A stretch of DNA of 49,323 nucleotides from Kiloniellaceae bacterium (lineage in GTDB: Bacteria > Pseudomonadota > Alphaproteobacteria > Kiloniellales > J153). A program made the translations under genes and the position numbers. Below the pieces are notes generated by a model. It searched no databases. It worked only from the letters and a program-made list of their open reading frames with translations, and was not told where the DNA came from. The stretch is from assembly GCA_021776215.1 (NCBI GenBank), contig JAJFGI010000423.1, positions 1-49,323 on the forward strand. Reading direction: 5' to 3'. Shown one piece after another: positions 2,570 to 46,758 of the stretch (positions are counted from its first letter, which is position 1; every line of letters begins with the position of its first letter).

Positions 2570-3121
2570 GTACGGCGCTGGTTCCTCAAATTTGGCACCC
2601 CAATCGCAAAAAACTTACGCCGTATGCGGCCCACACCCAGCGACTATTGGCATCTCGATGAGATGGTCATTGTTATCCGAGGGCGACGTCATTGGTTATG
2701 GCGAGCCGTCGACAATGAAGGTGAGGTTCTGGATTTCCTCGTGCAATCAAAGCGGGACGCCAAAGCCGCATTGAAGCTGATGCGGAAACTGTTGAAGAAG
2801 CATGGGTGGGCGCCAACTCGGATCACAACCGATAAACTCAGATCCTATCATGTCGCATTCCGAATCCTCGGCCTGACGGCTGAGCACATCGACAATAAGC
2901 GCGCGAACAATCGTGCGGAGAACTCGCCCCAACCGGTCAGACGACGAGAGCGCAAACAGCAGCGTTTCAAATCACCGGGCTCTGCGCATCGCTTCCTGAA
3001 TATCCACTCTTCGGTCTACACCACTTTTTACGTCCAGCGTCATTTGCTCAGCAGATCCGCATTCAAGCAATTTCGGATCGACGCGTTTAACGTATGGGGA
3101 AGTGCGGGCGCGGGAGCCTGA
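2570..3121 (+). pseudogene. IS6-family transposase, N-terminally truncated
   Basis: ESVRRWFLKFGTPIAKNLRRMRPTPSDYWHLDEMVIVIRGRRHWLWRAVDNEGEVLDFLVQSKRDAKAALKLMRKLLKK...TDKLRSY matches the IS6 DDE transposase pattern. The first ~45 aa are absent. Confidence 0.85.
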
Positions 3122-6559: not shown

Positions 6560-7483
6560 TCAAGCGGCGAGAGATAGCCTTTTTCTAAACGCAAAAAGCC
6601 CCGCCAGCGCGGAGCCGAAAAGCAGAATTGCGCCGGGTATCGGCACGGCCGAAACGGGGGCGTACGGAAGAAATTGGACCCCCGCATCTGTGAGATCAAG
6701 ACCGCCGCTCAAGCCGTTGCTGCCAGCAAGAATACCCAAGCAAGAGCCGGAGAGGGTGTTTTGATCCAACGTCACGGCCCCCGTACTCGCCGCGGCTCTA
6801 CCGCATGAATCGGTTGCGGAGGTGTTCATGGTGATGCTCGCGTCCGCGAAAATGTTCCCGAAGAAGGTCGTGTTTAGATCGATGGTGGCGGAGCTGCCGA
6901 CATTCCAATACAAGCCGGCACCTGACCCGGTATTGATCACGCTCACGCCTGAGTTGGGCGAGGTGATCAACGTGCTGGGCATCTGGAAAACCCAGGCCGC
7001 GTTGGCGTTGCCTCCACCGTCGAGTATGAGCAGCCCCGACAAATTTGTAGTCCCCGCTGGAACCGTATAGACGCCCGGCATGATCGTGAGTCCAGCCAAG
7101 TCCGCACCAAGGAGGGTCCCTACCCCTAGAGATCCAAGATTAGATCTCGCGGTGGTGAGTTGACCCTGAGCCGACTGCGCGGCCGCAGTGCCTGCGTGTA
7201 CCAGTCCTCCCGTCACCTGCGGGTCCGACACCGCAACGCCTGGTGAGGAATTAAAGCCCGTGATTGCATTCGCACCACCGCTCGACCAGACACCGACATT
7301 TCCGCCGATGGCGCTCGGGGAAACATTGGTCACCGTTGAGGCGCCCAGAACCGTAAAGCTCTCCAAATCCGAACCCAGAAACACCGCGGCCATTCCCTGG
7401 GTGGGGCCATACAGAAGTGCAACGATAGGGGCGATGATGACTAGTCGGGCACTGCGTCGGAGGGGCGTACTTGCCGTCTTCAT
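6560..7483 (-). CDS. Ice-binding-like (DUF3494) secreted protein with PEP-CTERM-like C-terminal sorting signal
   Basis: Signal peptide followed by the DUF3494 pattern (LGSDLESFTVLGASTVTN...ITGFNSSPG...AAAQSAQGQLTTA...GVYTV...AAWVFQMPSTLIT...NVGSSATIDLNTTFFGNIFADASITM...GRAAASTGAVTLDQNTL). The C-terminus is VPIPGAILLFGSALAGLFAFRKR. Confidence 0.85.
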   Translation of the reverse strand: MKTASTPLRRSARLVIIAPIVALLYGPTQGMAAVFLGSDLESFTVLGASTVTNVSPSAIGGNVGVWSSGGANAITGFNSSPGVAVSDPQVTGGLVHAGTAAAQSAQGQLTTARSNLGSLGVGTLLGADLAGLTIMPGVYTVPAGTTNLSGLLILDGGGNANAAWVFQMPSTLITSPNSGVSVINTGSGAGLYWNVGSSATIDLNTTFFGNIFADASITMNTSATDSCGRAAASTGAVTLDQNTLSGSCLGILAGSNGLSGGLDLTDAGVQFLPYAPVSAVPIPGAILLFGSALAGLFAFRKRLSLAA

Positions 7484-13164: not shown

Positions 13165-13710
13165 CTATAATGCCTTGCGGTGATCAACCTGCATCACCAG
13201 ACGAAGGGTTTGCCGCCCGCGCGACAGGCGGGAACGCACAGTGCCCACTGGCACGTTCATGACGGTCGAAGCCTCTTTATAGGTAAATCCTTCGAGCCCG
13301 ACTAATAGGACCGCTATACGCTGGCTATCCGGAAGGGCATTGAGCGACAATTCGAGGTTCTTGAGCTCGATCGAGTCGATTTGATTTGGCGGCCAAGACA
13401 TTTGCGGACGCTGCTCGTCAATCGACAGCAGCCTTGGGCGCGACGCGTAGCGGCGTTTGTGATCAATGAATAAGTTGTGCAAGATCGTGAACAGCCATGC
13501 CTTCATGTTGGTTCCGGGCTGCCAGCGATGGCCACGCTCAATGGCCCTCACTAGACAATCCTGAACTAGATCGTCAACCTGGTCGGGACCACCAAATAAA
13601 AAGCGCGCATATCGGCGAAGTTGTGGAATATACTCTAAAACTTCAACACGAGTATCAGTTATAGCACCCAAAATTGGATTAGATGAATTGGGCAGAGCGT
13701 TCGTGCGCAT
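13165..13710 (-). CDS. ECF-type RNA polymerase sigma-70 family factor
   Basis: Region 2 (DDLVQDCLVRAIE...AWLFTILHNLFIDHKRR) and region 4 (LPDSQRIAVLLVGLEGFTYKEASTVMNVPVGTVRSRLSRGR) are present. The ATG follows a GGAGG site. No anti-sigma ORF is adjacent. Confidence 0.9.
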   Translation of the reverse strand: MRTNALPNSSNPILGAITDTRVEVLEYIPQLRRYARFLFGGPDQVDDLVQDCLVRAIERGHRWQPGTNMKAWLFTILHNLFIDHKRRYASRPRLLSIDEQRPQMSWPPNQIDSIELKNLELSLNALPDSQRIAVLLVGLEGFTYKEASTVMNVPVGTVRSRLSRGRQTLRLVMQVDHRKAL

Positions 13711-29149: not shown

Positions 29150-29371
29150 CCGATCCCGCATCGACACTACCAGCGCTGTACCGTCGGGCAAAAATCCGAG
29201 GCCGGACGGCTGTCCTGGCACGTCAAAGACAAACACCATCTTCCCGTCGGGGAAGACACGATAGTCTTTGCAACCAACCAAATCGGACAACCACAGCCAG
29301 CCATCGCGCCAAGGCGGCCCTTAGAGAAAATGGAATCCCGATGCGATAATCCTGGTTTTAAGCTCCTTCAT
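29150..29371 (-). pseudogene. SMP-30/gluconolactonase/LRE-like N-terminal fragment with in-frame stop
   Basis: MKELKTRIIASGFHFL*GPPWRDGWLWLSDL...DVPGQPSGLGFLPDGTALVVSMRDR. A TAA occupies the position of the conserved E in FxEGPxW. The fragment is truncated at the HigB remnant. Confidence 0.55.
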
Positions 29372-29423
29372 TTTCTATCGCTTTCCATAATTTCCGCTGG
29401 ACATCAGTTGCACCACGGATCGT

Positions 29424-29807
29424 TCATTTTCGTTCCGAGCCCGGCGCTTGGGTTGCCCAAATCACACTCAGAAAGACGGCTTTGGCACGCGGTAGAACCA
29501 CGAGGGCCAAAGCGAGAGCCAACGCTGGCCAGACCGTCATCGACACCCAATTCGGCCAGGACGTATACTTCACGGCGGCGAAAACAATCGGAACGGCAAT
29601 GTGACCGACCACGAGGATTGTGAGCCACGGCGCTGCGTCATCCGAACGGATATGCCCGTACTGCTCGCCACAAACAGCGCAGCGATCGACTTGCTTCAAA
29701 TACGACGCGAACAACTTCCCCTGGCCACAGTTGGGACATCGACCAAAAAGTGCACGCCATACAACGGCACCGAGTCCACGTCGAGCATGCTGCCCCTCAT
29801 CTTGCAT
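29424..29807 (-). CDS. DUF983 family membrane protein
   Basis: RCPNCGQGKLFASYLKQVDRCAVCGE...DAAPWLTILVVGHI is the typical DUF983 zinc-ribbon plus TM pattern. The ATG at 29807 overlaps the upstream ORF stop (TGATG). The longest ORF extends to 29888. Confidence 0.8.
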   Translation of the reverse strand: MQDEGQHARRGLGAVVWRALFGRCPNCGQGKLFASYLKQVDRCAVCGEQYGHIRSDDAAPWLTILVVGHIAVPIVFAAVKYTSWPNWVSMTVWPALALALALVVLPRAKAVFLSVIWATQAPGSERK

Positions 29808-30206
29808 CAAGGGAGTAGGCCTTCTGTAAGCGGCAGTACATTTGTCGCTTTGAAGTTTTTGATCGCGACTCCGATCGCGGCAAGCCAAAGCTGAACCAGC
29901 AAAGTTTTCGTCGCATGATCCGGCTCTGAAGGACGCATTAAGCGAGACGCGCCGCGGATGCGCGCCGTCGTGAAATCAACAAACCGGTTACTGGTCAGTG
30001 CCACCCCGAGTGCTGTCAGGAGATAAATCCATGTAAAAAAGCGGCGAAATCGAAGCTGATTGAGAATCGAAAGCCGGGCCGATGTCCGAAGACGCCGGGG
30101 CAATCAACCCGTGTCGCGCGGATAGAGAGACAACGAGAGTTGCCAACCCAACGGCTATGAATTGGCTAAATGCTGCAACAAGCCCGGCCTGGAAGAGCCG
30201 CAACAT
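29807..30206 (-). CDS. Possible small multi-TM protein split over two overlapping frames (72-aa and 98-aa ORFs)
   Basis: The 72-aa ORF starts 12 nt after the NuoB-like gene stop and begins with a TM helix. The 98-aa ORF ends in a TGATG overlap with DUF983. The two frames overlap at 29988-30103. No homolog is recognised. Confidence 0.3.
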
Positions 30207-30217
30207 AGTTCGCCTCC

Positions 30218-30751
30218 TTACGACGCCCCCATTTTGGTCGTCAGATGTTGTAGGAGTGCCAGTAAGCCTTTCAGAATGTCAGTGGGTGACGGCGGGCAGC
30301 CGGGTATATGGAGATCGACCGGCACCACCTCCGACACGCCGCCCACGACCGCATAGCTGCCCGCGAAGCAACCACCGTCTAGTGCACAACCACCGACAGC
30401 GACGACCCATTTAGGGTTAGGGATTGCGTCGTAGGTCCGCGCCAGTGCCTCGCGCATGTTCTTGGTGACGGGGCCTGTTACGAGCAACACATCAGCGTGG
30501 CGTGGCGATGCAACGAATCGAATGCCGAATCGCTCAATGTCGTAAAAAGAATTGTTTAGGGCATGAATTTCAAGCTCGCAGCCATTGCAGGATCCGGCAT
30601 CGACATGACGGATCGCGAGGCTGCGGCCAAGCCGGCCTCGGGCGGCGGTGTCCACCTGCCCGGCGAGTTCGGCCAGTGCCGATTCATCAGCCGGTGGCGC
30701 TGGCTCGGTGACAGGCGGCTGGATTAGGCATTCGAGAAGAATCTTCCGCAT
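30218..30751 (-). CDS. NuoB/HycG/HyfI-like small subunit with [4Fe-4S] cysteines retained
   Basis: GSCNGCELE, VGGCALDGGC and IPGCPPSP motifs are present, behind a ~45-aa N-terminal extension. A GGAG site precedes the ATG. Confidence 0.9.
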   Translation of the reverse strand: MRKILLECLIQPPVTEPAPPADESALAELAGQVDTAARGRLGRSLAIRHVDAGSCNGCELEIHALNNSFYDIERFGIRFVASPRHADVLLVTGPVTKNMREALARTYDAIPNPKWVVAVGGCALDGGCFAGSYAVVGGVSEVVPVDLHIPGCPPSPTDILKGLLALLQHLTTKMGAS

Positions 30752-30763
30752 ATCCGTACGCTC

Positions 30764-32284
30764 CTAAAGATCGTGCCCGGAATAGGAGCAGTTGAAGGAT
30801 TTGTTGCACAGGGGGAAGTCAGCCACGATATTATCCTCGATCGCAGCTTCGATTAGCGGCCATTGGAGCCACGAAGGATCGCGCAGATGGCAGCGCGCAA
30901 CCTTGTTGTCCTCGCCGATCCGCACCCAAGCCAGAATATCACCGCGAAACCCCTCGACGAGTGCCATGCCTTCCCGGGCGGTGCCAAGCCCTTTGGTATT
31001 AAGGGCTGTATAAACGGCGCCGCCCGGTAGTCGGTCGAGAATCTGTTCGACCATGGACAGGCTTTGTTCGATCTCGTGGATGCGAATCCAAACGCGGGCA
31101 TCGACATCGCCTTCCTCGCGGACGGGAACTTCGAACGTCAATTCCCCATAAGGGGCGTAACCTAGCGCGCGCCGCGCATCGAAGAGTCGCCCGGAGGCGC
31201 GTCCCACATAACCGCCGGCTGCGAATTTCCGCGCAAGGGCCGGCGTGACAATTCCCGTGCCGACCGTTCGATCCTGGAGCGAGGTGGTGTTGTCGTACAG
31301 TGTGACCAGCGCGGGGAAGCGGTGGCGTATTTTCTCGACAAGAACGCGGAGTTGATCCGCGCCATCCATGGCAATATCTGTTGCCAGTCCGCCGGGGATC
31401 ACACGGTCCATCATCAGCCGGTGCCCGAAAGCGCTGTCGGCGGTGCGCAGTACAAGCTCGCGCAGAATCCCGCAGTGCGCATGCATCAGCGCGAAGGCGG
31501 CGTCGTTGCAAATTCCACCGATGTCACCGAAATGGTTGGCAAGTCGCTCGACCTCGGCCATTAGTGCACGTAGCCAGATGGCGCGTTGCGGCACCTCGAC
31601 GCCGAACGCAGCTTCGACAGCCCGGGCGAAGGCGAGGGCATAAGCGACCGTACTGTCGCCGGACGTTCGTCCGGCGAGCTTGGTGGCGCGGTCCAGGCTG
31701 GCCCCGGTCATCAACCCCTCGATCCCCTTGTGGGTGTAGCCGAGACGTTCCTCAAGACGAACGACGGTTTCGCCGGTCGCCGTGAATCGAAAATGCCCCG
31801 GCTCGATGGTGCCGGCGTGGACCGGGCCGACCGGGATCTGGTGCAAGCTTTCACCTTCGGCAGTCAAAAAGTCATAGGAAAAATTCTCCGCCGGGACGGT
31901 GGGTTTCGACCCCAAAGGGTAACGTAGGCCCCAGTGTCCATGGTCGAGCCATGGCCGCGTATCGGTGGCGCCTTCCGGCTCCAGCCCGAATAGGTCGCGA
32001 ATTGCGCGCTCGAGACGGATCGCCGGCGGGTGCCGCTGACCGACCGAGGGGAATTTGTTGTCGGGACATTCCAGACTGACAACACCGATGTCACCCACGC
32101 CTTCGTCGAGCAACGCCATATGCACTGCGGCGGTCTCGCCCCACAAGGCAAGCAGCGACCAATGCCCCTCGGCAAGCTGATCCACGGCGAAACGCCAAAC
32201 TTCGGCGTCCACCACGGCGCGTGGCCAGGGACGATGCGCGTCCACCCGTCGGCCTTCCAAGATTACGTCGATAAGCGCTGGCAT
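30764..32284 (-). CDS. NuoC-NuoD fusion / HycE-HyfG-like 'large subunit' lacking the [NiFe] cysteine motifs
   Basis: IPVGPVHAGTIEPGHFRF...LEERLGYTHKGIE...GRTSGDSTVAYALAF. RTSGDS sits where RxCGxC is expected. The C-terminus SFNCSYSGHDL sits where DPCxxCxxR/H is expected. Confidence 0.9.
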   Translation of the reverse strand: MPALIDVILEGRRVDAHRPWPRAVVDAEVWRFAVDQLAEGHWSLLALWGETAAVHMALLDEGVGDIGVVSLECPDNKFPSVGQRHPPAIRLERAIRDLFGLEPEGATDTRPWLDHGHWGLRYPLGSKPTVPAENFSYDFLTAEGESLHQIPVGPVHAGTIEPGHFRFTATGETVVRLEERLGYTHKGIEGLMTGASLDRATKLAGRTSGDSTVAYALAFARAVEAAFGVEVPQRAIWLRALMAEVERLANHFGDIGGICNDAAFALMHAHCGILRELVLRTADSAFGHRLMMDRVIPGGLATDIAMDGADQLRVLVEKIRHRFPALVTLYDNTTSLQDRTVGTGIVTPALARKFAAGGYVGRASGRLFDARRALGYAPYGELTFEVPVREEGDVDARVWIRIHEIEQSLSMVEQILDRLPGGAVYTALNTKGLGTAREGMALVEGFRGDILAWVRIGEDNKVARCHLRDPSWLQWPLIEAAIEDNIVADFPLCNKSFNCSYSGHDL

Positions 32285-32303
32285 GTTCTGGACTTCCCTG
32301 CTT

Positions 32304-33752
32304 TTAACCGAGGAGGCGCGCGACGTGCTGGAACCAGGTCACCAAGGGGCCAGGCAGGTAAAGGCCGGCTGTGAGCACCAGCGCCAAGTGGGCGAACATC
32401 GGCACGTAGGAGGCTTCCACCGGTGCGATACTGCCTTGTGGTTCGCCGAACGCGAGCCCATTGAGCCGAAGCAGCAGTGCGCCGAACGCCACCAGCAAAC
32501 CAAAAACCAGTAGAACCGCCAGCAGCGGTTCGCGGGCGAACGTTGAACTCACCACGAGGAACTCGCTCATGAAAATGCCGAGCGGCGGCAGGCCGGCAAT
32601 CGCGATCACACCGACAACGAGTCCCCAGCCGAGTATCGGATGGGTCTCGGTGAGGCCCCGAATATCGGCGATCTTCTGTGTGCCTTTGACCTGTGCGATG
32701 TGACCGACCGCGAAGAAGATTGCCGACTTGGTCAGACTATGCATCGTCATGTGCAAAAGCCCGGCGAAGTTGGCGAGCGGTCCGCCCATGCCGAAGGCGA
32801 ATGTAATAATGCCCATATGCTCGATGGAGGAATAGGCGAACAAGCGCTTGATGTCGCGTCGGCGGTAGAGCATGAAAGCGGCAAAAATGAGCGAGGTGAG
32901 CCCCATGGTTACCATGAGCGGCCCCGGCGCGATGGCTTGCGCGTTCGCGGCCATGAGCAGCTTGAAGCGCAGCACGGCATAGAGCGCGACATTAAGCAAC
33001 AAGCCCGACAGCACCGCCGAGATCGGCGTTGGGCCCTCCGCGTGGGCGTCTGGAAGCCAGGCGTGCACGGGGGCCAAACCGACTTTCGTGCCATAACCCA
33101 GCAGCAGAAATACGAAGGCGACGTTGAGCAACGCGGGATCGAATTCCGCCACGCGCTCGATGAGGATTGTCCAGGTCATGGCGTCGAGGCCCTCACCGAC
33201 AACCGGCTGGGCCGCGACATAGAACAGGATTGTCCCGAACAGCGCGAGCGCGATCCCCACGCTGCCTAGGATGAAGTATTTCCAGGCCGCCTCAAGCGCC
33301 TCGTGGGTTCGGTAAATGCCAACCATCAACACGGTTGTGAGCGTGGCAAGCTCGATGGCGACCCACATTAGACCGATGTTGTTTGCTACGAGGGCAAGAT
33401 TCATGGCGAACATCATCGCCTGGTACATGGCGTGGTAGAAGCGCAGATGGGTTGGTGTCAGCCGGCCGGTTTCAAGCTCATGGGCGATATAGCTGGCACT
33501 GAAAACGCTTGTCGTGAAGCCGACAAAGGTATTGAGCACGATGAACACGATGTTGAGGTCATCGACGAGCAGAAGCGGCCCGGTCTCTGGGCGTACGACA
33601 AACAGAGTTACGGCAGCCAGTAGCGTAAGGAAGCTTGCCAGAACGTTCAGCAATGCCGTGCCGCGGTAGCCTGGCAGTACAGCCAGCACGGCCGCGGCAA
33701 TAAGCGGAATTGCCAGTACAGCGCTTAGGCCATCGAACGGCAGCACCGTCAT
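32304..33752 (-). CDS. HyfF / NuoN-M-like antiporter-type membrane subunit
   Basis: 482-aa polytopic protein with Mrp/NuoM-type motifs (GTKVGLAPVHAWLPDAHAEGPTPISAVLSG...RLFAYSSIEHMG). Confidence 0.9.
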   Translation of the reverse strand: MTVLPFDGLSAVLAIPLIAAAVLAVLPGYRGTALLNVLASFLTLLAAVTLFVVRPETGPLLLVDDLNIVFIVLNTFVGFTTSVFSASYIAHELETGRLTPTHLRFYHAMYQAMMFAMNLALVANNIGLMWVAIELATLTTVLMVGIYRTHEALEAAWKYFILGSVGIALALFGTILFYVAAQPVVGEGLDAMTWTILIERVAEFDPALLNVAFVFLLLGYGTKVGLAPVHAWLPDAHAEGPTPISAVLSGLLLNVALYAVLRFKLLMAANAQAIAPGPLMVTMGLTSLIFAAFMLYRRRDIKRLFAYSSIEHMGIITFAFGMGGPLANFAGLLHMTMHSLTKSAIFFAVGHIAQVKGTQKIADIRGLTETHPILGWGLVVGVIAIAGLPPLGIFMSEFLVVSSTFAREPLLAVLLVFGLLVAFGALLLRLNGLAFGEPQGSIAPVEASYVPMFAHLALVLTAGLYLPGPLVTWFQHVARLLG

Positions 33753-34411
33753 TGCCGATCTCCGCGAAAACTGTCGAGCGCGTGTAGGTCGACGGTATCG
33801 AAACGCTCGCGAATGCGGAACAGGAAGATGCCGATGACCATGAATGCGACGAGTACGGAAAAAGCGACGCTAATTTCTACGACAAGCGGCATCCCCTTGG
33901 CGCCGGCGGCGGCGAGGATCAAACCGTTCTCGATCGACATCAGACCGACCACCTGGCCGACTGCATTGCGTCGGCTGACCATCATCAAGAGGCCCAAGAG
34001 GATGACGGAAAGCGCAAACGCGATATCTTGTCGCGCCAGCGCGTCTGCTTCGGCTGTGACTTGGAGCATCAGAGCCATGGAGAGGGCGACCAAACCAATG
34101 CCGGCGAGCATGGTTGGGCCGATGCCGACGACGGTCTCGACCGTCCGATGGATGTTGAGACGCTGTACGATGCGGCGGAGCGCCAAGGGAATGATGATAG
34201 CCTTAACGATGAGGGCAATCGCCGCGGTGATATAGAGATGTGGCGCGCCCTGGACCAGCGCCTCCCAGGCGACGGAGAGCGAGAGCACGAGGGCGTGCAG
34301 GGCGAACACGTTAAGCAGGCCATACATGCGGTCCTGGTAAAGCAGCATGAAACTGACCAACACCATGCCCCCGGCCAGCATATGTGCGACATCAAAGGCG
34401 AGATGCTCCAT
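33749..34411 (-). CDS. HyfE-like membrane subunit
   Basis: 220-aa, ~7-TM protein. It has a 4-nt overlap with the downstream gene and a 1-nt overlap with the upstream gene. Confidence 0.85.
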   Translation of the reverse strand: MEHLAFDVAHMLAGGMVLVSFMLLYQDRMYGLLNVFALHALVLSLSVAWEALVQGAPHLYITAAIALIVKAIIIPLALRRIVQRLNIHRTVETVVGIGPTMLAGIGLVALSMALMLQVTAEADALARQDIAFALSVILLGLLMMVSRRNAVGQVVGLMSIENGLILAAAGAKGMPLVVEISVAFSVLVAFMVIGIFLFRIRERFDTVDLHALDSFRGDRQ

Positions 34412-35367
34412 TACAGGCTCCGTGTTACGAACATGAGCAGGGTGGCGAGCAGAGCCAGCATGAGGGCCGCGCCCAGAAATTCGGGGACGCGGAAGACCCG
34501 CATCTTGGCTATTGCCGTTTCAAAAAGCGCGAGCAGGAAACCACCAGCCGCAAGTTTACCGGCATAGATGGCGATACCAAACGCATAGGCCGCCGGCCCC
34601 TGACCCGCTTGCGCCAAGCCCCACGGGGCGAACACACTCGCGATAAGCGATATATAGAGCAACAGCTTCAACGAGGACGCCGCCTCGATGACAGCGAGGT
34701 GACGGCCGGAATACTCCAGAACCATGGCCTCATGGACCATGGTGAGTTCGAGGTGGGTCGCCGGGTTGTCCACCGGAATACGAGCGTTCTCCGCGAGTGC
34801 CACCATGACGAGGGCAATGAGGGCAAGGCCGAGCGAAACCCGCAGACCCACTTCCGAAGACATCATAAAACTTGCAACTGAAGAGAGCTGCGTAGAGCCC
34901 GCGATCAGGGCTATGGTGAAAACAACCATGATCATGGCAGGTTCGGCGAGTGAGGCGATCATCACTTCCCGGCTGGAGCCGATGCCGCCAAAACTGGTGC
35001 CCACGTCAAGCCCGGCCAGCGCAAGGAAGAACCGCGCGCTGCCGAGCAGCGCGACAATGGCGATCAGATCGGCCGACCAGCTAAAAAGCAAACCGGTCGC
35101 AAAGGTCGGCACCAGCGCCGCCGCCACCCAGGTCGCGGCAAAGATCAAATACGGCGCCGCACGGAAGAGCCAGGAGGCGTTTTCGGCCAAAACCACCTCC
35201 TTGCGCAGGAGGCGCAGCAAATCCCGATAGGGCTGGGTGACGGGCGCGCCGCGTCGCCGGAGCATCCGGGCCTTGACCTTGCGGATGAAGCCCGTGAGTA
35301 GGGGTGCTAGCATTAGAACCAGCAACATCTGTCCGGCCTGGACGGTAAGATCAAGGATTACCGCCAT
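34411..35367 (-). CDS. HyfC/HycD/NuoH-like membrane subunit
   Basis: 318-aa polytopic protein with NuoH-family motifs (PYRDLLRLLRKE..., ENARIPVDNPATHLELTMVHEAMVLEYSG). Confidence 0.9.
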   Translation of the reverse strand: MAVILDLTVQAGQMLLVLMLAPLLTGFIRKVKARMLRRRGAPVTQPYRDLLRLLRKEVVLAENASWLFRAAPYLIFAATWVAAALVPTFATGLLFSWSADLIAIVALLGSARFFLALAGLDVGTSFGGIGSSREVMIASLAEPAMIMVVFTIALIAGSTQLSSVASFMMSSEVGLRVSLGLALIALVMVALAENARIPVDNPATHLELTMVHEAMVLEYSGRHLAVIEAASSLKLLLYISLIASVFAPWGLAQAGQGPAAYAFGIAIYAGKLAAGGFLLALFETAIAKMRVFRVPEFLGAALMLALLATLLMFVTRSL

Positions 35368-37373
35368 AGCGCAAGCACCAACAGCAACGCGACGAGAGCG
35401 ACGAAGACGAGTGTCAGATATCGCCGTATGGTAAGAAACTGCAGCACATTAAGCCAATCGGCCGCGAGTCCGATGAAGCCTTCAATGGGCGCATAGAGCG
35501 TGTCCCACACCAGATCGCGAAGCTGAACCCGCAGGCGTGCCGGTCGGGTATCCCCGGGTGGCGGCATGGAGACTTGCTCGCGGGCGAGAAAGACCTGTGG
35601 CCCGAAGACGCGCCGGATCGGTTGCGCGAAACTGCCGGCCGTGTATTGGGTGGCTGGATTCGGATCCGGGAAACCGCAATCCCAGGCGGGCGCCCGTCGG
35701 ACCTTGCGTGAAGCGAGACGGTGAATGGCTACCGCCGCAAATGTCGCTGAAGAGACGATGAATAGAAACACCAGAAGCCCATTATAGGAACTCCGCGCCT
35801 CGGCAATGGGTACAATGGACAACCAGGGTACCGCTGCCTGCGCCGGCATGCGCGCGCCAACCAGAGCTTGAGTGACCGGCGCCATCGCGTCGATGATGAA
35901 GCCGGGAAATATTCCGGCTAAGAGACACAGAGCCACGAAGGCGAACATTGTCGCCAGCGAGAAACGGTCGACTTCCTGGGCCCTCTCCGCCGCAGGCGAC
36001 CGGCAGCGGCCGAGAAAGGTGATGCCGAAGGCTTTGACAAAACACGCCGCCGCGAGCGCTGCGGATAGCGCCAACATTGCGCCGACAGCGGGCACCAGTA
36101 GCCTCAGACCCCATTGTGGGAGTTCGGGGCTGATCAGGATTGCCTGGAAGGTTAGCCATTCCGAAACGAAACCGTTCAGCGGCGGCAGGGCGGAGATGGC
36201 GACGGAGCCTGCCAGAAAGGCAAAGGCCGTCAAGGGCATGCGATGGATCAGGCCGCCCAATCGTTCCATGTCGCGTTCACCCGTTGCCGTCAGCACGGCG
36301 CCCGCGCCGAAGAACAACAGGCTCTTGAACAGCGCGTGGTTAAAAACATGAAACAGCGCCGCCGTGAGGGCGAGTGCCGCCGCGGCGGCGAGCCCGTTCG
36401 CCTCGAAAGCGAGGGCAAGGCCGAGCCCGATGAAGATGATCCCGATGTTTTCAACCGTGTGATAGGCGAGCAGCCTTTTGAGATCGTGCTGCATTAAGGC
36501 ATAGAGCACGCCCAGAACGGCGGTTGCGCCGCCAAGGGTGAGGACCACCGTGCTCCACCACCAGGCGGGCGGCCCCAAGAGATCGAAGACAATGCGAATG
36601 AAGCCATAGACGGCAACCTTGGTCATGACGCCGCTCATCAGCGCCGAGACGTGGCTCGGTGCCGCCGGGTGGGCCAACGGCAACCAGACATGAAGCGGGA
36701 CAAGTCCTGCTTTCGAGCCCGCGCCTAACAGGATGAGGCCAAGAACAAGTCCTGAAATCCACGGCGCCGGCGTCCCCGCGCGAATCATGGCAAAGCCATA
36801 GTCCCCGCTTGGGCTGGCCAGAAGGCCGAAGGCAAGCAGTAGCGCCAAGGTGCCGAAACTCGCCATGACGAGGTAGATATAGCCGGCGCGCGTATTATCC
36901 TGTTCGCGGTGGTGAGACATGACCAGCGCCCAGGAGCTGAGGGACATGAATTCCCAACTCAGAAGGAAGGTATAGGCATCGTCTGCGAGCACCACCAGAT
37001 TCATGGCGGCGAGAAAAGCCGGAAAGAAAGGTAACACCCGCGCCGGCGCGGTTTCGTGCCGGCCATAACCAAGCCCGTACAGGCTTGCTGCTGCACCGCC
37101 AAGGTTGACGACGACCAGGAACAATGCCGAAAGCATATCCAACCGGAAATTCGCGCCGAGCCACGGCAGCCCAAGCGGCAGCACAAGGGTCGATGCCGAA
37201 GTCGCTTTGCCAATGAGATGGGTGAGCGCGACCGTGAACGCCGTGGCGCAGACAACGAAACTCGCCATATAAACAACCCGCGTGGTCGCGGAAAGCCGTA
37301 TCAAGGCTATCGCCAGGAATCCGATGGCAAGCAAGGCGGCGACGCACCACAACAGCACTAATGCAGCCGACAT
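35358..37373 (-). CDS. HyfB / NuoL-like antiporter-type membrane subunit
   Basis: 671-aa polytopic protein (WEFMSLSSWALV...GSKAGLVPLHVWLPLAHPAAPSHVSALMSGVMTK...RLLAYHTVENIG). Confidence 0.9.
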   Translation of the reverse strand: MSAALVLLWCVAALLAIGFLAIALIRLSATTRVVYMASFVVCATAFTVALTHLIGKATSASTLVLPLGLPWLGANFRLDMLSALFLVVVNLGGAAASLYGLGYGRHETAPARVLPFFPAFLAAMNLVVLADDAYTFLLSWEFMSLSSWALVMSHHREQDNTRAGYIYLVMASFGTLALLLAFGLLASPSGDYGFAMIRAGTPAPWISGLVLGLILLGAGSKAGLVPLHVWLPLAHPAAPSHVSALMSGVMTKVAVYGFIRIVFDLLGPPAWWWSTVVLTLGGATAVLGVLYALMQHDLKRLLAYHTVENIGIIFIGLGLALAFEANGLAAAAALALTAALFHVFNHALFKSLLFFGAGAVLTATGERDMERLGGLIHRMPLTAFAFLAGSVAISALPPLNGFVSEWLTFQAILISPELPQWGLRLLVPAVGAMLALSAALAAACFVKAFGITFLGRCRSPAAERAQEVDRFSLATMFAFVALCLLAGIFPGFIIDAMAPVTQALVGARMPAQAAVPWLSIVPIAEARSSYNGLLVFLFIVSSATFAAVAIHRLASRKVRRAPAWDCGFPDPNPATQYTAGSFAQPIRRVFGPQVFLAREQVSMPPPGDTRPARLRVQLRDLVWDTLYAPIEGFIGLAADWLNVLQFLTIRRYLTLVFVALVALLLVLALWR

Positions 37374-37439
37374 CGCGCCTCGCTCTCCACAGGCCCGAAT
37401 ATGGTTCGATCATTCAAATTGTTCAGTTGCATTCTGTTG

Positions 37440-37685
37440 TCACGCCTTCAGCCGAACGCCCCGCCCACCAGCGTGGCTGGCCGCGCCTTCCGCGATCAAT
37501 TCGATGCCCGCCACGTCAAGTGCTGTGATCAACTTCATAAGCGAATCGACGTTACCCCGAATCATCGATTCGCTGCCCTCCATGCGTTGAATGGTCGGCA
37601 CCGACAGCTCCGACAGCTCCGCGAGCCGACGCTGGTCGATGCCGAGAAGAGCTCTGGCGGCCCTCAACTGTGAGGCTGTTATCAT
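37440..37685 (-). CDS. XRE-family HTH transcriptional regulator (81 aa)
   Basis: MITASQLRAARALLGIDQRRLAELSELSVPTIQRMEG. The gene lies 66 nt upstream of the HyfB-like gene on the same strand. Confidence 0.8.
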   Translation of the reverse strand: MITASQLRAARALLGIDQRRLAELSELSVPTIQRMEGSESMIRGNVDSLMKLITALDVAGIELIAEGAASHAGGRGVRLKA

Positions 37686-37806
37686 AGGCCGACCTTATCA
37701 ACCGTGAAATATGATAAAACAGCGTTGCAATATAACTATAAATGTGGAAAAGTCAATTATTAATGTATAAAACATCATTGTTGATGGGAAACGTCAGGTG
37801 CGTGTC

Positions 37807-37958
37807 ATGGCGGACGAGCGCCTGGACGATATTGAGATCCATTCCGTCTCTACCGGTGCCATACAATTATGAATTGTGCGCAGGCTTGCCCGAAGAACCT
37901 CAATCCGGCAAAAGCCATTGCCAAGATAGAAACCATGATGGTGGAGCGACAGTTCTAA
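37807..37958 (+). pseudogene. sdhB: Succinate dehydrogenase iron-sulfur subunit (SdhB) 3-prime remnant, frameshifted
   Basis: ...ADERLDDIE, then a frameshift, then [40 protein letters not shown]. Only the last ~50 codons are present. Confidence 0.7.
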
Positions 37959-38085
37959 GAGAGGCCGTTTGAAATCCTGTGCTACTCGTTACCAAATGTA
38001 CGGTCGTCGGCGGTTTGAATCACGCCAATGAATTCGCTTAGTCGTTCCAGCAATTTCCAGTGAGGCGAGGCGCTACAAAAAGCTC

Positions 38086-38817
38086 ATGATCACGATAGCG
38101 GCATTCGAGAATGAATTTGGAGAAGTCGAAATCCTGAAAACCAGGGCGACCGGTTCGTATATCTATTTGCAGGGGGGCTGCTATCAAACCGAGATAGACG
38201 GTAACGGTGTGAGTCTAGCTTCGTATGTTCACGCGATCTACGGGTTACTCGCGCAAACCAAAGCCCGTGACGTTTTAATGGTCGGATGCGGAGGTGGCAG
38301 TTTAGGTACGATGCTTGCCAGGGCGGGTGTCCAAGTCACGATCGTTGACAATAATCCGGCGTCGTTCCAAATCGCCCGGGACCATTTTGGCCTTCCCGAA
38401 ACGATTGATTGCCATATTGCCGATGGCAAGGAATTTCTACGTTCCACACGGCACTGTTATGATGCAATTGTGTTGGACGCCTATAAGGGCAATCGCATCC
38501 CGCATCATCTGTGTACGCCGAACTTCTTCCGCCTCGCTCAGTCGCGCCTCGATCAGTCTTGCGGTCGTCTTTTCGCGAATGTCCACGTGCTCCACGATCT
38601 AGACATGACGCCAGATCAATACGCCGCCACCGTAGGAAATGTCTGGAACGACGTGCGGCTCCTCGACATGCGCGGTGTCATCAATCGCAACGCACTTGTA
38701 GTGGCCGGCGACGTCAAAGGTCTTCGGAAACCCGCCCTTCTCGTGCCACCGCTGTCGGATAGCGAAGAAATTGCGATAAACCTTGATCGCATGAATTTCC
38801 GGTCTTGGCGTTTCTAG
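38086..38817 (+). CDS. Spermidine synthase-like class I SAM-dependent methyltransferase-fold protein
   Basis: VLMVGCGGGSLGTMLARAGVQVTIVDNNPASFQIARDHFGLP...ADGKEFL...YDAIVLDAY. Confidence 0.8.
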   Translation: MITIAAFENEFGEVEILKTRATGSYIYLQGGCYQTEIDGNGVSLASYVHAIYGLLAQTKARDVLMVGCGGGSLGTMLARAGVQVTIVDNNPASFQIARDHFGLPETIDCHIADGKEFLRSTRHCYDAIVLDAYKGNRIPHHLCTPNFFRLAQSRLDQSCGRLFANVHVLHDLDMTPDQYAATVGNVWNDVRLLDMRGVINRNALVVAGDVKGLRKPALLVPPLSDSEEIAINLDRMNFRSWRF

Positions 38818-39422: not shown

Positions 39423-39554
39423 GGCTTTGTCAGGCCAACGCCGATTAGGTTTAAAATATGATTCTAGGCGGTCCACGAACCGTGCAGAAAACTTGCAAAT
39501 ACCCGCAACCATTAGGCGATAGAAAAATGCCGAGAATTTTACGCTGACAGTGCC
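39423..39554. mobile_element. MITE-like element with IS6-type terminal inverted repeats (copy 2), inserted in an IS6 transposase gene
   Basis: Full-length homolog of 21707-21839. The interrupted tnp reading frame ends ...WRWRLDKVSVV at the element boundary. Confidence 0.55.
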
Positions 39555-39810
39555 ACCACGGACACCTTGTCCAGGCGCCAGCGCCATCGGGAATACGAAC
39601 GATGATGAATGCGTCGTTTTTGATCTCCGCGGCCAACATCGGATCAAACCGGTTCCACCAAAACCGAACGGTCTCGTAGCAAATATCGAGGCCCAGTTCG
39701 AGGAGAAGATCCTCGACCTGCCGAAGCGACAGCGGATGACAGAAGTACATCATCACCGTGAGGCGGGTTACCTCGGGTGAATTATTGAAACGGTGGAAGG
39801 GATTACGCAT
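39555..39810 (-). pseudogene. IS6-family transposase N-terminal fragment (frameshifted, truncated)
   Basis: MRNPFHRFNNSPEVTRLTVMMYFCHPLSLRQVEDLLLELGLDICYETVRFWWNRFDPMLAAEIK, then a frameshift to KRRIHHRSYSRWRWRLDKV. Confidence 0.75.
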
Positions 39811-39996: not shown

Positions 39997-40458
39997 CTAC
40001 GCGGGATGATGCGCCGGTGTGCTTTCGGCGCGGCTGGTCCGCTCCGGCTGCGACACGATCTTCAGGACTGTAACCCTCTTCGGGCGCCCATCCGGTGCGG
40101 GATAAGTGATCGACTGTCCCTCCGAAAGGCCGATAAGCGCCGCACCGACCGGTGTCAGCACCGAAAGAGCATCATGATAGAAATCCCGGTCGCTGGGATA
40201 CGCCAGCGTGACCACCTGATCGATCTCGCTATCGTCCATGCGAAACGCGACGCGCGAGCGCATCGTCACGATGTCGCCCGGGACATCCTTCTCGTCCACG
40301 ATATGTGCCCGCATCAGCTCTCGCACCAGATACTCAACCGCCCTCCATGACCACGTCGTGGCGTGAAAGCCAAGCAGGTGTTGCAGCCTTCCGAGGTCCC
40401 AGTTCGTGACCTTGATGTCTGGCTGAGTGTAGGTCTGCGACAATTCGCTCGTTTCCAT
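39997..40458 (-). CDS. Rnk-like (GreA/GreB C-terminal domain) regulator, divergent paralog
   Basis: VVTMRSRVAFRMDDSEIDQVVTLAYPSDRD...LSVLTPVGAALIGLSEGQSITYPAPDGRPKRVTVLKIVSQPE. The ATG at 40458 has a GGAGGA site 5 nt upstream. The longest ORF extends to 40551. Confidence 0.8.
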   Translation of the reverse strand: METSELSQTYTQPDIKVTNWDLGRLQHLLGFHATTWSWRAVEYLVRELMRAHIVDEKDVPGDIVTMRSRVAFRMDDSEIDQVVTLAYPSDRDFYHDALSVLTPVGAALIGLSEGQSITYPAPDGRPKRVTVLKIVSQPERTSRAESTPAHHPA

Positions 40459-40566
40459 CTTGTCCTCCGCTCGTGATGCAGTGCATTTAACCTGATTGCG
40501 GCGACAATTCAGGCGCGCAATCGGCCGGTACTTAGATAGCCTAACGGTCACTTCGCCGAATGGGAT

Positions 40567-40989
40567 TCATAGGTCGAACCGCCCATTCGCTTCGGGCTGA
40601 TACAGGATTTCAACCACGGTCAGTTCCTTGGTCTGACCATCACGAGTGATCCATGACAGTGTTTCTCCCTCGATAAGGCCAATGAGTGCCGCGCCCGCCG
40701 GCGTCAGAATCGAAAGATTGCCGATCGAGATATCCTCTTGTCCAGGGTAGACGAGAGTGAACACGCGCGTCTTACCGGTCACTTCGTCGCGAACGGTCAC
40801 GCGGGAGTTCATAGTGACGACATTGGGCGGAATTTTCGCCGGCTCGACGATCAGCGCGCGATCGAGTTCCTGCGCCAGTATGCGGCTGATTTCGATAAAC
40901 GGACCGTCTTGACTCGCGGCAAGCATGGAGAGCCGTTCATTGTCCCGTTCCGTTAGAACAATCGATGCAGTTGTGTGATGCGTGGTCAT
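40567..40989 (-). CDS. rnk: Nucleoside diphosphate kinase regulator Rnk family protein
   Basis: VVTMNSRVTVRDEVTGKTRVFTLVYPGQEDISIGNLSILTPAGAALIGLIEGETLSWITRDGQTKELTVVEILYQPE. Confidence 0.85.
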   Translation of the reverse strand: MTTHHTTASIVLTERDNERLSMLAASQDGPFIEISRILAQELDRALIVEPAKIPPNVVTMNSRVTVRDEVTGKTRVFTLVYPGQEDISIGNLSILTPAGAALIGLIEGETLSWITRDGQTKELTVVEILYQPEANGRFDL

Positions 40990-41910: not shown

Positions 41911-42534
41911 TCACATCTCCGCCAACGCTCGAGAGCGCCATTCGGGTGACCGACTTTCATTCGCGGTGCGCTCGCGCGACGCGCGTACGTCCGGCGTCCA
42001 ATCGACATTGATTTTGACGTCGTTCGCGGCGTCAGCTGATGTGTCCGGTGCCGTTGGCCGCGCGTCGGGGACACGGAGCCGATGTCGGGCGGGCACGAGA
42101 ACCTCCTGCATGGCGTCTGAAAGCTGAACCACCGGATGGGTCGCCGAGAGGTCGCGGCCCCGGCTCAACACGGTGTCGACCACATCGCCGAGCCGACCAG
42201 GCTCAATGCCGATATCCCGCAAGAGCCGGTCCCCCAGCCGAGAAAGCTCGCGAATCGCCGCTCGCCACTCTCTCCTGACTCTCAGGCGCGCCAGTTCTCT
42301 CTTTCGCCCGGAAGTTGGCAACGGCGCGACCGGCACGGCACTGTGTGCAGCCGCGCGCGCGTACTCCGCAATCCGGTGGCGGGGGACGCCAATGTCAGCC
42401 AGCAATCGGTCGTCCAACCGATCCAAGGTGGACGCCGTGTGATGCTGCACGATCGCGCGCCGCTGGACCGCGAGGAAATAGCGAATGAGGGACTTCAAAC
42501 GATGGAACCAGGTCATGTCACGTACTCTCATCAA
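41911..42534 (-). CDS. Protein with two DUF1127 repeats
   Basis: Two copies of the DUF1127 signature, LDRLDDRLLADIGVPRHRI and LSRLGDRLLRDIGIEPGRL. An alternative ATG at 42516 follows a GAGAG site. Confidence 0.7.
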   Translation of the reverse strand: MMRVRDMTWFHRLKSLIRYFLAVQRRAIVQHHTASTLDRLDDRLLADIGVPRHRIAEYARAAAHSAVPVAPLPTSGRKRELARLRVRREWRAAIRELSRLGDRLLRDIGIEPGRLGDVVDTVLSRGRDLSATHPVVQLSDAMQEVLVPARHRLRVPDARPTAPDTSADAANDVKINVDWTPDVRASRERTANESRSPEWRSRALAEM

Positions 42535-44445: not shown

Positions 44446-45105
44446 ATGAACCTCACTCTGCCGATGCTTCCATACCCGGACGACGCCTTGGAACCGCATA
44501 TCTCGCGCGCGACGCTGAAGATCCATCATGGCAAACACCATCGGGCTTATGTGGAGAAGGCCAAGGCGCTGGCAAAGGAACTGCGTCTGGACGACCAACC
44601 GCTCGAATGGATCATACAACAGACCGCCAAAGAGGATCGCCACCGCGCCCTGTTCAACAATGCGGCGCAGGCCTGGAACCACGCCTTTTACTGGCGCTCC
44701 CTCGTGCCGAACGGCGGCGGCGCGCCCACCGGCGAGATCGGCAAACGGATCGACAGCGATCTCGGCGGCTATGACACGTTTGCCCAGCAATTCGCGGACG
44801 CCGCCGTTGGGCAATTCGGCAGCGGCTGGGCTTGGCTTGTGCTTGACGGCGACAAGCTCCGGGTTACGGCCACCTCGAACGCCGACACACCGCTCGCTCA
44901 CGGCCAGACGCCGCTGCTTGGTATCGATGTGTGGGAACACGCCTACTATCTCGACTATCAGAACCGCCGGGCGGATTACGCGGCCGGGGTTATCGAGCAC
45001 CTGATCAACTGGGACTTCGCCAACCGAAACCTGAGCCGCCGGAAAGCGTCGGCAAGCGTGCTCCAGCCGCTTGTCGAAGGTGCCCGGACGAGCACCGGGC
45101 TCTGA
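44446..45105 (+). CDS. sodB: Fe-type superoxide dismutase
   Basis: LPYPDDALEPHISRATLKIHHGKHHRAYV...AAQAWNHAFYW...GSGWAWL...DVWEHAYYLDYQNRRADY. All four metal ligands are present. An AAGGAG site lies upstream. Confidence 0.93.
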   Translation: MNLTLPMLPYPDDALEPHISRATLKIHHGKHHRAYVEKAKALAKELRLDDQPLEWIIQQTAKEDRHRALFNNAAQAWNHAFYWRSLVPNGGGAPTGEIGKRIDSDLGGYDTFAQQFADAAVGQFGSGWAWLVLDGDKLRVTATSNADTPLAHGQTPLLGIDVWEHAYYLDYQNRRADYAAGVIEHLINWDFANRNLSRRKASASVLQPLVEGARTSTGL

Positions 45106-45123
45106 CCGCCGAGAGCAAGGGCC

Positions 45124-46758
45124 ATGGCAGTCACGGAAATGCCAACCGGAATCCTGCGTCCCGTAGACCATCCGACCGGATGGCGACGCTGGGCCTATTC
45201 GACCAACCACAAAGACATTGGCACGATGTATATCGTGCTGTCTATCTCGGCCGGACTTCTCGGCAGTCTACTGTCGGTCGCCATGCGCACCGAATTAGCC
45301 GAGCCGGGACTGCAGATCTTTACCGACCCACAGCTCTTCAACGTCTTCGTCTCGGCGCACGGCCTGATCATGATCTTCTTCGTGCTGATGCCGGCGCTCA
45401 TCGGCGGCTTCGGCAACTGGTTTGTGCCGCTGCTGATCGGTGCGCCCGACATGGCGTTTCCGCGGCTCAACAACATCAGCTTCTGGCTTCTGATTCCGTC
45501 GCTCGCCCTCCTGGTCGCGTCGATGTTCACCGGCACGGGGGCGGGGACGGGCTGGACTCTCTATCCGCCGCTCAGCAACCTGGGGCACCCGGGGCCCGCC
45601 GTCGATATGCTGATCTTCGCGCTGCATTTGGCCGGCGCGTCGTCGATCCTCGGCGCTATCAACTTCATCACTACGATCTTCAACATGCGCGCCCCAGGCA
45701 TGGTCCTGCACAAGATGCCGCTGTTCGTTTGGTCTATGCTGGTGACTGCGTTCATGATCCTGCTCGCCCTGCCGGTCCTCGGTGGCGCCATCACCATGCT
45801 GCTGACCGATCGCAACTTCGGCACGGCGTTCTTCATGCCCGCCGGTGGCGGAGATCCGCTCCTGTTCCAGCACCTCTTCTGGTTCTTTGGCCATCCCGAG
45901 GTCTACATTATGATTCTGCCCGGATTCGGGATTATCAGCCATGTCGTATCGACATTCTCCAAGAAGCCGATTTTCGGTTACCTCGGCATGGTCTACGCGC
46001 TGGTCGGGATCGGATTCGTCGGCTTTCTGGTGTGGGCCCATCATATGTTCACGGTCGGGTTGGCCGTCGACACGCGCGCCTACTTCGCCGCGGCCAGCAT
46101 GGTCATCGCCGTCCCCACCGGGATCAAGATTTTCAGTTGGATCGCGACCATGTGGGGCGGCTCGATCGAATTCAAGACCCCAATGCTGTTCGCGATAGGC
46201 TTCATTCTGTTGTTTACCATCGGCGGCGTGACCGGCGTGGTCCTGGCCAATGCCGGCGTCGATATCGTGCTGCACGATACCTACTACGTCGTTGCGCATT
46301 TCCACTACGTGATGTCGCTCGGCTCGGCCTTCGCCATCTTTGCCGGATTCTACTACTGGATCGGCAAGATGTCCGGCCGCCAGTATCCGGAGATGTTGGG
46401 CAAGATCCATTTCTGGCTGACCTTCGTGGGTGTCAATCTGACGTTCTTCCCGATGCATTTTCTCGGCCTTGCCGGCATGCCGCGCCGGATCGCGGATTAT
46501 CCGGATGCGTTCGCGAATTGGAACCTGGTGGCCTCGATCGGCAGCTACATTTCCCTCGCCGGTTTTCTGGTATTCCTGCTTTTGGTCTGGCGGACCCTGG
46601 CCGCGGGCAAGCGTTGTCCCGCCAACCCCTGGGGCGCGGGCGCGACGACCTTGGAGTGGACTCTGCCGTCGCCGGCGCCGTTCCATACGTTCAATGAGCT
46701 GCCGGACCTGACGGGCGAGGGAACGGTATCCGCGGGTGCGGCACCGCGGAGCAGCTAA
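45124..46758 (+). CDS. ctaD: Cytochrome c oxidase subunit I (aa3-type)
   Basis: [36 protein letters not shown] and [12 protein letters not shown] are all present, so the heme a, heme a3 and CuB ligands are intact. Confidence 0.95.

Follow-up and report, generated by a model that had tools for sequence, protein, structure and literature searches.

An Ehr-type relative of the group 4 [NiFe] hydrogenases that lacks the Ni-Fe ligands and is headed by a conserved XRE-family gene in a Kiloniellaceae bacterium

The complexes known as Ehr, for energy-converting hydrogenase-related, are structural intermediates between the group 4 [NiFe] hydrogenases and respiratory complex I; the name is said to go back to Coppi in 2005, and the complexes were reportedly surveyed by Marreiros et al. 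in 2013. Here, a locus of this type is analyzed that lies at positions 30218–37685, on the minus strand, of a 49,323-nucleotide stretch of DNA from a Kiloniellaceae bacterium (Alphaproteobacteria; GenBank assembly GCA_021776215.1, contig JAJFGI010000423.1), hereafter called the window. In the literature, the Ehr complexes are described as relatives of group 4 hydrogenases without the Ni-Fe ligands and of unknown function (PMC6349859, PMC10284858, PMC7894505). Every subunit of the Geobacter Ehr cluster GSU0739-45 was more abundant on formate than in hydrogen-containing conditions, and the role of that complex has never been investigated (PMC7894505). The literature searched contained only genomic surveys and the Geobacter proteomics, with no functional study of any Ehr. 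The subunits of the present locus are named EhrA–D, EhrL, and EhrS after the Geobacter annotation (PMC7894505). The locus has all the features of the family, namely a large subunit (EhrL) and a small subunit (EhrS) of group 4 type, the absence of the Ni/Fe-coordinating residues, and EhrA–D encoded beside EhrL and EhrS. Together with its own XRE-family regulator it forms a seven-gene unit, and the complex that it encodes is, on the evidence of the sequence comparisons below, probably a redox-coupled ion translocator, a reading held with reasonable rather than firm confidence.

The six structural genes encode, in order, an antiporter-like subunit 1 of the HyfB/HycC/NuoL type (EhrA, 35358–37373, 671 amino acids), a NuoH/HycD-like membrane subunit (EhrB, 34411–35367, 318 amino acids), a small HyfE-like membrane subunit (EhrC, 33749–34411, 220 amino acids), an antiporter-like subunit 2 of the HyfF/NuoM type (EhrD, 32304–33752, 482 amino acids), a large subunit in which a NuoC-like domain is fused to a HycE/NuoD-like domain (EhrL, 30764–32284, 506 amino acids), and a small subunit of the HycG/MbhJ/NuoB type (EhrS, 30218–30751, 177 amino acids). 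Successive genes overlap by 10, 1, and 4 nucleotides and are then separated by gaps of 19 and 12 nucleotides. The first gene of the unit encodes an 81-amino-acid XRE-family helix-turn-helix protein (37440–37685; Pfam HTH_3, E 6e-05) and ends 66 nucleotides upstream of the HyfB-like gene. These open reading frame coordinates agree with a preliminary description of the DNA, made from the sequence alone, which had given overlaps of 1–10 nucleotides and gaps of at most 19 nucleotides for the six genes and had placed an 81-amino-acid XRE regulator 66 nucleotides upstream.

Both antiporter-like subunits match the Pfam family Proton_antipo_M (E 9e-54 and 1e-55). Among the NCBIfam models, EhrA scores 903 bits against NF005086 (‘hydrogenase 4 subunit B’; curated cut-off 667) and EhrD 902 bits against NF005043 (‘subunit F’; curated cut-off 533). 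EhrC matches NF008556 (‘hydrogenase 4 membrane subunit’) at E 2.7e-21, a score under the curated cut-off, and is found at the same position in related loci. EhrB and EhrS belong to Pfam NADHdh (E 3.5e-37) and Oxidored_q6 (E 6.5e-36), respectively, and EhrL contains Complex1_30kDa and Complex1_49kDa domains along with a weak match to NiFeSe_Hases (E 1.4e-06). The comparison with solved structures covered the five subunits other than the HyfE-like one, and formate hydrogenlyase 1 (FHL-1) of E. coli (7Z0S) was the best solved relative for four of the five. EhrA is closest to HycC (7z0s_C, E 3e-69), EhrB to HycD (7z0s_D, E 1.7e-42), EhrD to MbhH of 6CFW, and EhrS to HycG (E 6e-38, with MbhJ at E 4e-37). 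An AlphaFold2 model of EhrL (predicted local distance difference test, pLDDT, 83; predicted template modeling score, pTM, 0.86) retrieved HycE (7z0s_E) as its best Foldseek match, with a template modeling (TM) score of 0.88, followed by E. coli NuoCD with a TM score of 0.80.

All four cysteine ligands of the Ni-Fe center are missing from EhrL. In the HMMER alignment with E. coli HycE (7z0s_E, E 1.9e-63), the L1 motif RVCGIC is paired with RTSGDS (residues 206–211; 31652–31669, minus strand) and the L2 segment DPCYSC with NCSYSG, and RMCGIC of MbhL is paired with the same RTSGDS. The former L2 motif, NCSYSGHDL (30767–30793, minus strand), is the very C-terminus of the protein and is followed by the stop codon. 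An exhaustive HMMER search for the family recovered 7457 representatives at E<1e-3, 1155 of them at E<1e-30, and about 85 full-length ones were aligned. Nine relatives in this alignment have RxCGxC together with ELCY[AS]CxDR; the remaining sequences, the query among them, have R-x-[SAC]-G-D-x and [SA]-Y-[SA]-G-x-D-L. The terminal FNCSYSGHDL aligns to LDPCYSCTDR of HycE and to the ELCY[AS]CxDR of the nearest Cys-containing relatives. Both the pairwise and the family alignments place S208, S211, S500, and G503 in the four cysteine columns, so that a canonical Ni-Fe center cannot be bound through them.

Because EhrL contains neither the L1 motif (RxCGxC) nor the L2 motif ([DE]PCxxCxx[HR]) that define group 4 hydrogenases, the complex is, judged by its sequence, not a hydrogenase. 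The cysteine of NC-SYSG stands one column before the third ligand, where most relatives have a leucine, and is specific to the subclade; it does not stand in for a ligand. EhrL stops at the point where the processed form of a hydrogenase large subunit would, with no C-terminal extension for a maturation protease. The preliminary description had read RTSGDS at the L1 position, had assigned S, S, S, and G to the ligand columns by eye, and had denied the complex hydrogenase activity. The translation and the alignments to HycE, MbhL, and the family representatives, none of which puts a cysteine of EhrL at a ligand column, bear it out on each of these points.

Where the Ni-Fe site would be, EhrL has a conserved polar pocket composed of R-x-S-G-D-S and the C-terminal S-Y-S-G-x-D-L. 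Comparison of orthologues from different species identified the segment 208–213 and the last 20 residues as the most conserved parts of EhrL, the latter being nearly invariant in the clade. The sequence S-G-D-S-T-V (208–213) reaches a conservation of at least 97% among 73 clade members, and ...NKSFNC[SA]Y[SA]G.D. terminates 120 out of 120 of the closest database clusters. Nearly all Cys-less relatives have Asp210, and none of the Cys-containing relatives do. Invariant residues are H164, E444, R447, and G448, and most representatives also have E161; E161 and R447 are presumably the counterparts of the proton-gate glutamate and the active-site arginine of [NiFe] hydrogenases. Five further cysteines (C259, C271, C465, C493, and C499) reach at least 95% conservation within the alpha/betaproteobacterial clade and are not conserved in the wider Ehr family. 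The C493-x5-C499 pair flanks the former L2 motif; C465 precedes a conserved R-D-P-S by three residues.

The small subunit retains the motifs GSCNGC, GGCA, and GCPP, whose cysteines C55, C58, C122, and C152 align with the cluster ligands of HycG and MbhJ and show at least 99% conservation across 69 clade members. EhrS has the four cysteines of the proximal [4Fe-4S] cluster of group 4 hydrogenases, as the preliminary description had stated, and their CxxC spacing is of the hydrogenase type, unlike the tandem CC that holds cluster N2 in complex I. In the membrane arm, EhrA retains the glutamate of transmembrane helix (TM) 5, the lysines of TM7 and TM8, and the glutamate of TM12, as aligned to HycC and MbhH. 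The same four residues are retained in EhrD, in which those that pair with K234, K265, and E407 of E. coli NuoM are kept and the TM5 glutamate is placed by the MbhH alignment. EhrB keeps the EYSG motif and the acidic residues of the loop.

The conservation of neighboring genes was scored over 82 related loci, in which genes were called by a codon-usage score. The XRE gene is present in 62 of these loci with a median identity of 76%, on par with the structural genes. In 52 of the 66 loci with sufficient flank, its position is immediately upstream and on the same strand; in six more it is found elsewhere in the locus. It overlaps or abuts hyfB in pRL11 and in a Bradyrhizobium plasmid. The XRE gene can therefore be counted, from its conservation, as the seventh gene of the unit. 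One locus (L078) has an additional antiporter-like gene between XRE and hyfB.

An imperfect 15-bp palindrome, GATGTTTTATACATT (read on the minus strand; 37762–37776), is the likely operator of the XRE protein. Of 53 regions upstream of the XRE gene, 55% match the corresponding consensus, GATGTTT-N-AAACATC, in at least 11 of its 14 positions, compared with 2.4% of shuffles, and the offsets recur. In the whole window, the palindrome with no more than three mismatches occurs only at 37762–37776. Chance alone would give about one match of this quality per window, so the argument for an operator is based on where the palindrome lies and on its recurrence among loci. Immediately downstream of it is a sigma-70-type promoter-like site, TTGACT-16-TATATT (37729–37756, minus strand), a consensus match of 10 out of 12 positions that ties with one other site for the highest score in 29300–38200 and outscores every other site upstream of the operon. 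The arrangement would suit a small repressor controlling its own operon: expression is probably autoregulated, with the XRE protein binding the palindrome that abuts the -35 box. No recurrent FNR/FixK box, sigma-54 site, NifA upstream activating sequence, Irr iron control element, or RirA box was found upstream of the XRE gene.

A subunit that would feed electrons to the cluster was searched for in several ways. A six-frame scan of the window for CxxCxxCxxxC[P/G/A/S] gave a single match, which is out of frame inside the HyfE-like gene, and no NuoI/HycF/EchF-type subunit with two [4Fe-4S] clusters is present among the open reading frames of the window or among the conserved neighbors of about 85 loci. 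Pfam scans of the other sizeable open reading frames of the window yielded no hyp genes, formate dehydrogenase, or HycI-type maturation protease. The preliminary description had listed the NuoI-type subunit, formate dehydrogenase, hyp genes, and the maturation endopeptidase as missing from the window, and the motif and Pfam scans uphold it. The six-gene order without partner genes recurs in about 80 species loci and in clades at 46% and 40% identity; redox partners in cis (formate dehydrogenase, NuoEF, a ferredoxin, or a NuoI-like protein) were found neither in 80 species loci nor in three contigs of distant clades.

These data are consistent with a mechanism in which a redox change of the single [4Fe-4S] cluster beside the pocket would drive the movement of H+ (or Na+), as in complex I, MBH, and FHL. 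Coupling would run through the NuoH-like and HyfE-like subunits to the antiporter-like chain. As no NuoI/HycF-type subunit or partner dehydrogenase is encoded in cis, electrons would be exchanged directly with a docking soluble carrier, for example a ferredoxin or flavodoxin. A second substrate, either a quinone or a small molecule, may bind in the former Ni-Fe pocket or close to it. The complex could work in either direction, conserving energy or using the proton-motive force to drive reverse electron flow. The preliminary description had likewise proposed a redox-driven ion-translocating module. That proposal gains from the at least 99% conservation of the cluster cysteines and from the conserved glutamates and lysines of the antiporter-like subunits, and it is kept here as an interpretation.

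Several points weigh against a redox-coupled ion translocator. A complex with a single Fe-S cluster and no input subunit would be an unusual basis for catalysis. The canonical quinone ligands of complex I are absent from EhrL: in the alignment with Nqo4 of T. thermophilus, RMDYLH is aligned to RTSGDS, Tyr87 being replaced by Gly209, and His38 of Nqo4 is replaced by Ile160. Reduction of a quinone at the usual position is therefore unlikely. The EhrL model is poor at residues 121–184, the beta1-beta2 loop included. The putative operator and promoter come from consensus matching and enrichment. No experiments on members of the clade were found in the literature searched.

A bolder proposal, tentative and rather unlikely, is that the former Ni-Fe pocket has been repurposed as a catalytic or ion-binding site, or that the complex is run backwards, either of which would make it a new class of respiratory enzyme. 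The repurposed pocket would be lined by Ser-Gly-Asp-Ser and Ser-Tyr-Ser-Gly-x-Asp-Leu, with a glutamate and an arginine in the second sphere and with C493-x5-C499 and C465 contributed by the clade. Fed by the cluster, such a pocket could reduce a disulfide, a persulfide, or a quinone-like molecule. If either the repurposed pocket or the reverse mode were true, this new enzyme class would be widespread in aerobic soil and symbiotic bacteria.

Alternatively, the complex might be a redox-independent cation/proton antiporter resembling Mrp, with the Fe-S module serving as a structural cap or as a sensor of redox state, O2, or nitric oxide that gates transport. The retention of the proton-transfer residues in both antiporter-like subunits would suit such a role, as would the lack of an electron-input subunit or partner oxidoreductase in cis at about 85 loci and the absence of the canonical quinone ligands. 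However, the four cluster cysteines are kept at 99% or more, the former active-site segments are the most conserved ones of the large subunit with Asp210 retained family-wide, the NuoH-like coupling subunit is kept, and equivalents of MrpB, C, E, F, and G are missing. On this balance the antiporter proposal is improbable, and coupling of ion movement to the redox state of the cluster remains the preferred reading.

The operon subclade was detected in at least 589 species by a pattern scan with one genome per species. The matches listed include Mesorhizobium, Bradyrhizobium, Ensifer, Rhizobium, Phyllobacterium, Methyloceanibacter, and Competibacter, as well as Rhodopseudomonas palustris and many metagenome-assembled genomes of alpha- and betaproteobacteria. 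Operons with 72–74% nucleotide identity are carried on plasmids of Rhizobium johnstonii 3841 (pRL11, RL_RS31230-31260), Bradyrhizobium, Ciceribacter, and Azospirillum. More distant Cys-less clades were found in Acetobacteraceae, Nitrospirota, Binatia, and Gemmatimonadota. One uncultured betaproteobacterium (locus L013) has two Ehr operons in tandem. The literature searched made no main-text mention of the R. leguminosarum locus tags around pRL11029x.

Most hosts are aerobic alpha- and betaproteobacteria, among them many diazotrophic rhizobia, in which low-potential reductant is scarce. This distribution bears on a reverse-running complex, in which the proton-motive force would push electrons from a quinol or another mid-potential donor to a low-potential carrier such as ferredoxin or flavodoxin, for example to supply nitrogenase or further reductive reactions of aerobic soil bacteria. 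Complex-I-type machines are reversible, which is in keeping with such a mode. Nevertheless, the flanks of the loci show no linkage to nif or fix genes, the FixK, NifA, and sigma-54 boxes were not found upstream, the canonical quinone site is absent, and in R. johnstonii 3841 the operon sits on pRL11, presumably not the symbiosis plasmid. A role of this kind is doubtful, and its probability is put no higher than that of the Mrp-like antiporter.

The operon genes are intact and under purifying selection. All six proteins match their homologues and models end to end in length, and the ratio of nonsynonymous to synonymous substitution rates (dN/dS) is 0.07–0.19 for every gene, XRE (0.10) included, in comparison with the metagenomic relative L089, which has the same gene order and a large subunit of 90% amino acid identity. 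Given full-length open reading frames and such ratios, the operon is not decaying. In a rough neighbor-joining tree with arbitrary rooting, the nine sequences with the cysteines group as a single clade within a diverse set of Cys-less lineages. It is highly improbable that the locus encodes a true [NiFe] hydrogenase with unconventional ligands or is the decaying remnant of a hydrogenase operon: the weak NiFeSe_Hases match, the ‘hydrogenase 4’ and ‘Ni,Fe-hydrogenase III large subunit’ names in public annotations, and two subclade-specific cysteines near the former L2 motif speak for it, but thousands of relatives have residues other than Cys in all four ligand columns, the C-terminal extension is lacking along with hyp and protease genes in the window, the genes are full length and constrained, and the Cys-containing relatives are nested in the tree.

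Homologues in public annotation (L001, L002, P0008-P0120, and P0392-P0447) go under the names ‘hydrogenase 4 subunit B/F’ and ‘Ni,Fe-hydrogenase III large subunit’; further names are ‘nickel-dependent hydrogenase large subunit’, ‘hydrogenase expression protein HypE’, and ‘NADH-quinone oxidoreductase subunit C’. No name among them conveys that the Ni-Fe ligands have been lost, and the annotations overstate what is known.

Other genes around the operon were considered as partners. The gene downstream of it encodes a DUF983 protein (Pfam), a neighbor whose conservation the preliminary description had wished to see checked along with that of XRE. By tblastn, DUF983 matches were found in 2 of the 82 loci and recur only in the closest relatives, L089 and L002; it is not a conserved partner, in contrast to XRE. 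A few kb upstream of the operon are two tandem Rnk/GreA-like genes (39997–40989, minus strand), a stand-alone NDUFS4-like gene (PF04800; 41329–41844, minus strand), and a gene for a DUF1127 protein (41911–42534, minus strand). The NDUFS4-like and Rnk/GreA-like genes were rejected as partners, with matches in 0 of the 82 loci. A gene with a class-I S-adenosylmethionine (SAM)-methyltransferase fold (38086–38817, plus strand, 243 amino acids) is divergent from the XRE gene. In 17 of the 82 loci, mostly downstream in Bradyrhizobium, homologues of it are no more than 10 kb away from the operon, and L089 has one as well.

Between the XRE and methyltransferase-fold genes is a frameshifted fragment of the C-terminal part of sdhB, the succinate dehydrogenase iron-sulfur subunit gene (37795–37960, plus strand), which is a pseudogene. 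Intact sdhD and sdhA are divergent beside XRE in L002 (15874–18067), intact sdhD is found so in L005 (30–398), and an SdhA fragment occupies the same place in L007 (4202–4342). As sdh is beside XRE in these three other loci only, it was rejected as a functional partner, and the arrangement is read as shared ancestry of a sub-lineage.

The only Rfam match in the window is a tRNA-Met gene (2049–2124, plus strand), and the scan found no RNA family near the operon. The tRNA gene is followed by a fragment of an IS6/IS240-type DDE transposase (2624–3121, plus strand). A short open reading frame near the operon (39451–39810, minus strand), without a Pfam match, looks by eye like the N-terminus of an IS6 transposase; the context resembles a genomic island. 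Elsewhere in the window, a gene for an Fe/Mn superoxide dismutase is followed 18 nucleotides on by one for a COX1-type haem-copper oxidase subunit I (44446–46758, plus strand for the pair); the gene downstream of the latter encodes acetyl-CoA synthetase and no further oxidase subunit. No named relative of this synthetase exceeds about 74% identity. A 1579-amino-acid CheB-CheR-PAS-histidine-kinase-receiver-LuxR fusion (8179–12918, minus strand) is encoded near a gene for an EcfG/PhyR-type extracytoplasmic function (ECF) sigma factor (13165–13710, minus strand), and a protein with an ice-binding-like domain (PF11999, E 3.5e-41) at 6560–7483 (minus strand). Further open reading frames of the window were assigned by Pfam to sigma factors and an ABC transporter.

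The locus leaves the picture of Ehr unchanged, and the comparative work supplies practical handles on it. What is new here is the conserved polar pocket, the XRE gene as a conserved seventh gene with a likely palindromic operator, and the finding that DUF983 is not conserved. Ehr is abundant in genetically tractable aerobic rhizobia, such as R. johnstonii 3841 with its pRL11 operon. With a small XRE regulator of its own and a recognizable operator, the operon could probably be switched on by deletion of one gene. The conserved replacement motif, and Asp210 above all, offers precise targets for mutagenesis.

Among known systems, the Mrp-type antiporters (MrpA-G) have no redox cofactors. The locus has only the MrpA/D-like cores in common with them and adds an Fe-S small subunit and a NuoH-like subunit. 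Complex I (NuoB, NuoCD, NuoH, NuoL/M/N) has the homologous NuoB-D-H ‘connecting’ module and homologous antiporter-like subunits, whereas NuoA, J, K, I, E, F, and G have no counterpart in the locus, which has neither the quinone Tyr/His nor the full core set of complex I.

The Pyrococcus furiosus complexes MBS/MBX (membrane-bound sulfane reductase, 6U8Y) and MBH (6CFW) belong to the same superfamily, with E 2.7e-28 for MbsL and 1.4e-34 for MbhL. They contain 13–14 subunits, among them a NuoI-like one with two clusters, and an Mrp module, compared with six subunits in the locus. MBS is a precedent in that it descends from a hydrogenase, has ceased to make H2, and still couples a redox reaction to ion transport. 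It keeps part of the cysteine set, of which EhrL has 0 out of 4.

The E. coli group 4a complexes Hyf and FHL-1 (Hyc, 7Z0S) share several traits with the locus. The NuoC domain is fused to the large subunit in both cases, the extra HyfE- and HyfF-type membrane subunits of Hyf are present in the locus, and the cluster of the small subunit is ligated through a hydrogenase-type CxxC. In contrast to Hyf/Hyc, the locus is without the Ni-Fe ligands, HycF/HyfH (NuoI-like), the HycB/HyfA ferredoxin, FdhF, HyfD, the maturation protease, and an FhlA/HyfR-type regulator.

The closest likeness is to the Ehr cluster of Geobacter sulfurreducens (GSU0739-0745), which encodes the same two antiporter-like subunits, NuoH-like and HyfE-like subunits, and large and small subunits, and whose group 4-homologous large subunit has equally lost the Ni-Fe cysteines, a likeness drawn from the published description rather than from direct sequence comparison. 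The alpha/betaproteobacterial subclade of the query differs in having a conserved XRE gene at the head of the unit and, in EhrL, five cysteines of its own, and in its hosts, which are mostly aerobes and not anaerobes. The preliminary description had likewise placed the locus with the Ehr-type complexes; the gene set has the six-subunit Ehr architecture, and the literature characterizes Ehr as that description did. The locus is a typical member of the described and abundant Ehr family and not a new kind of system.

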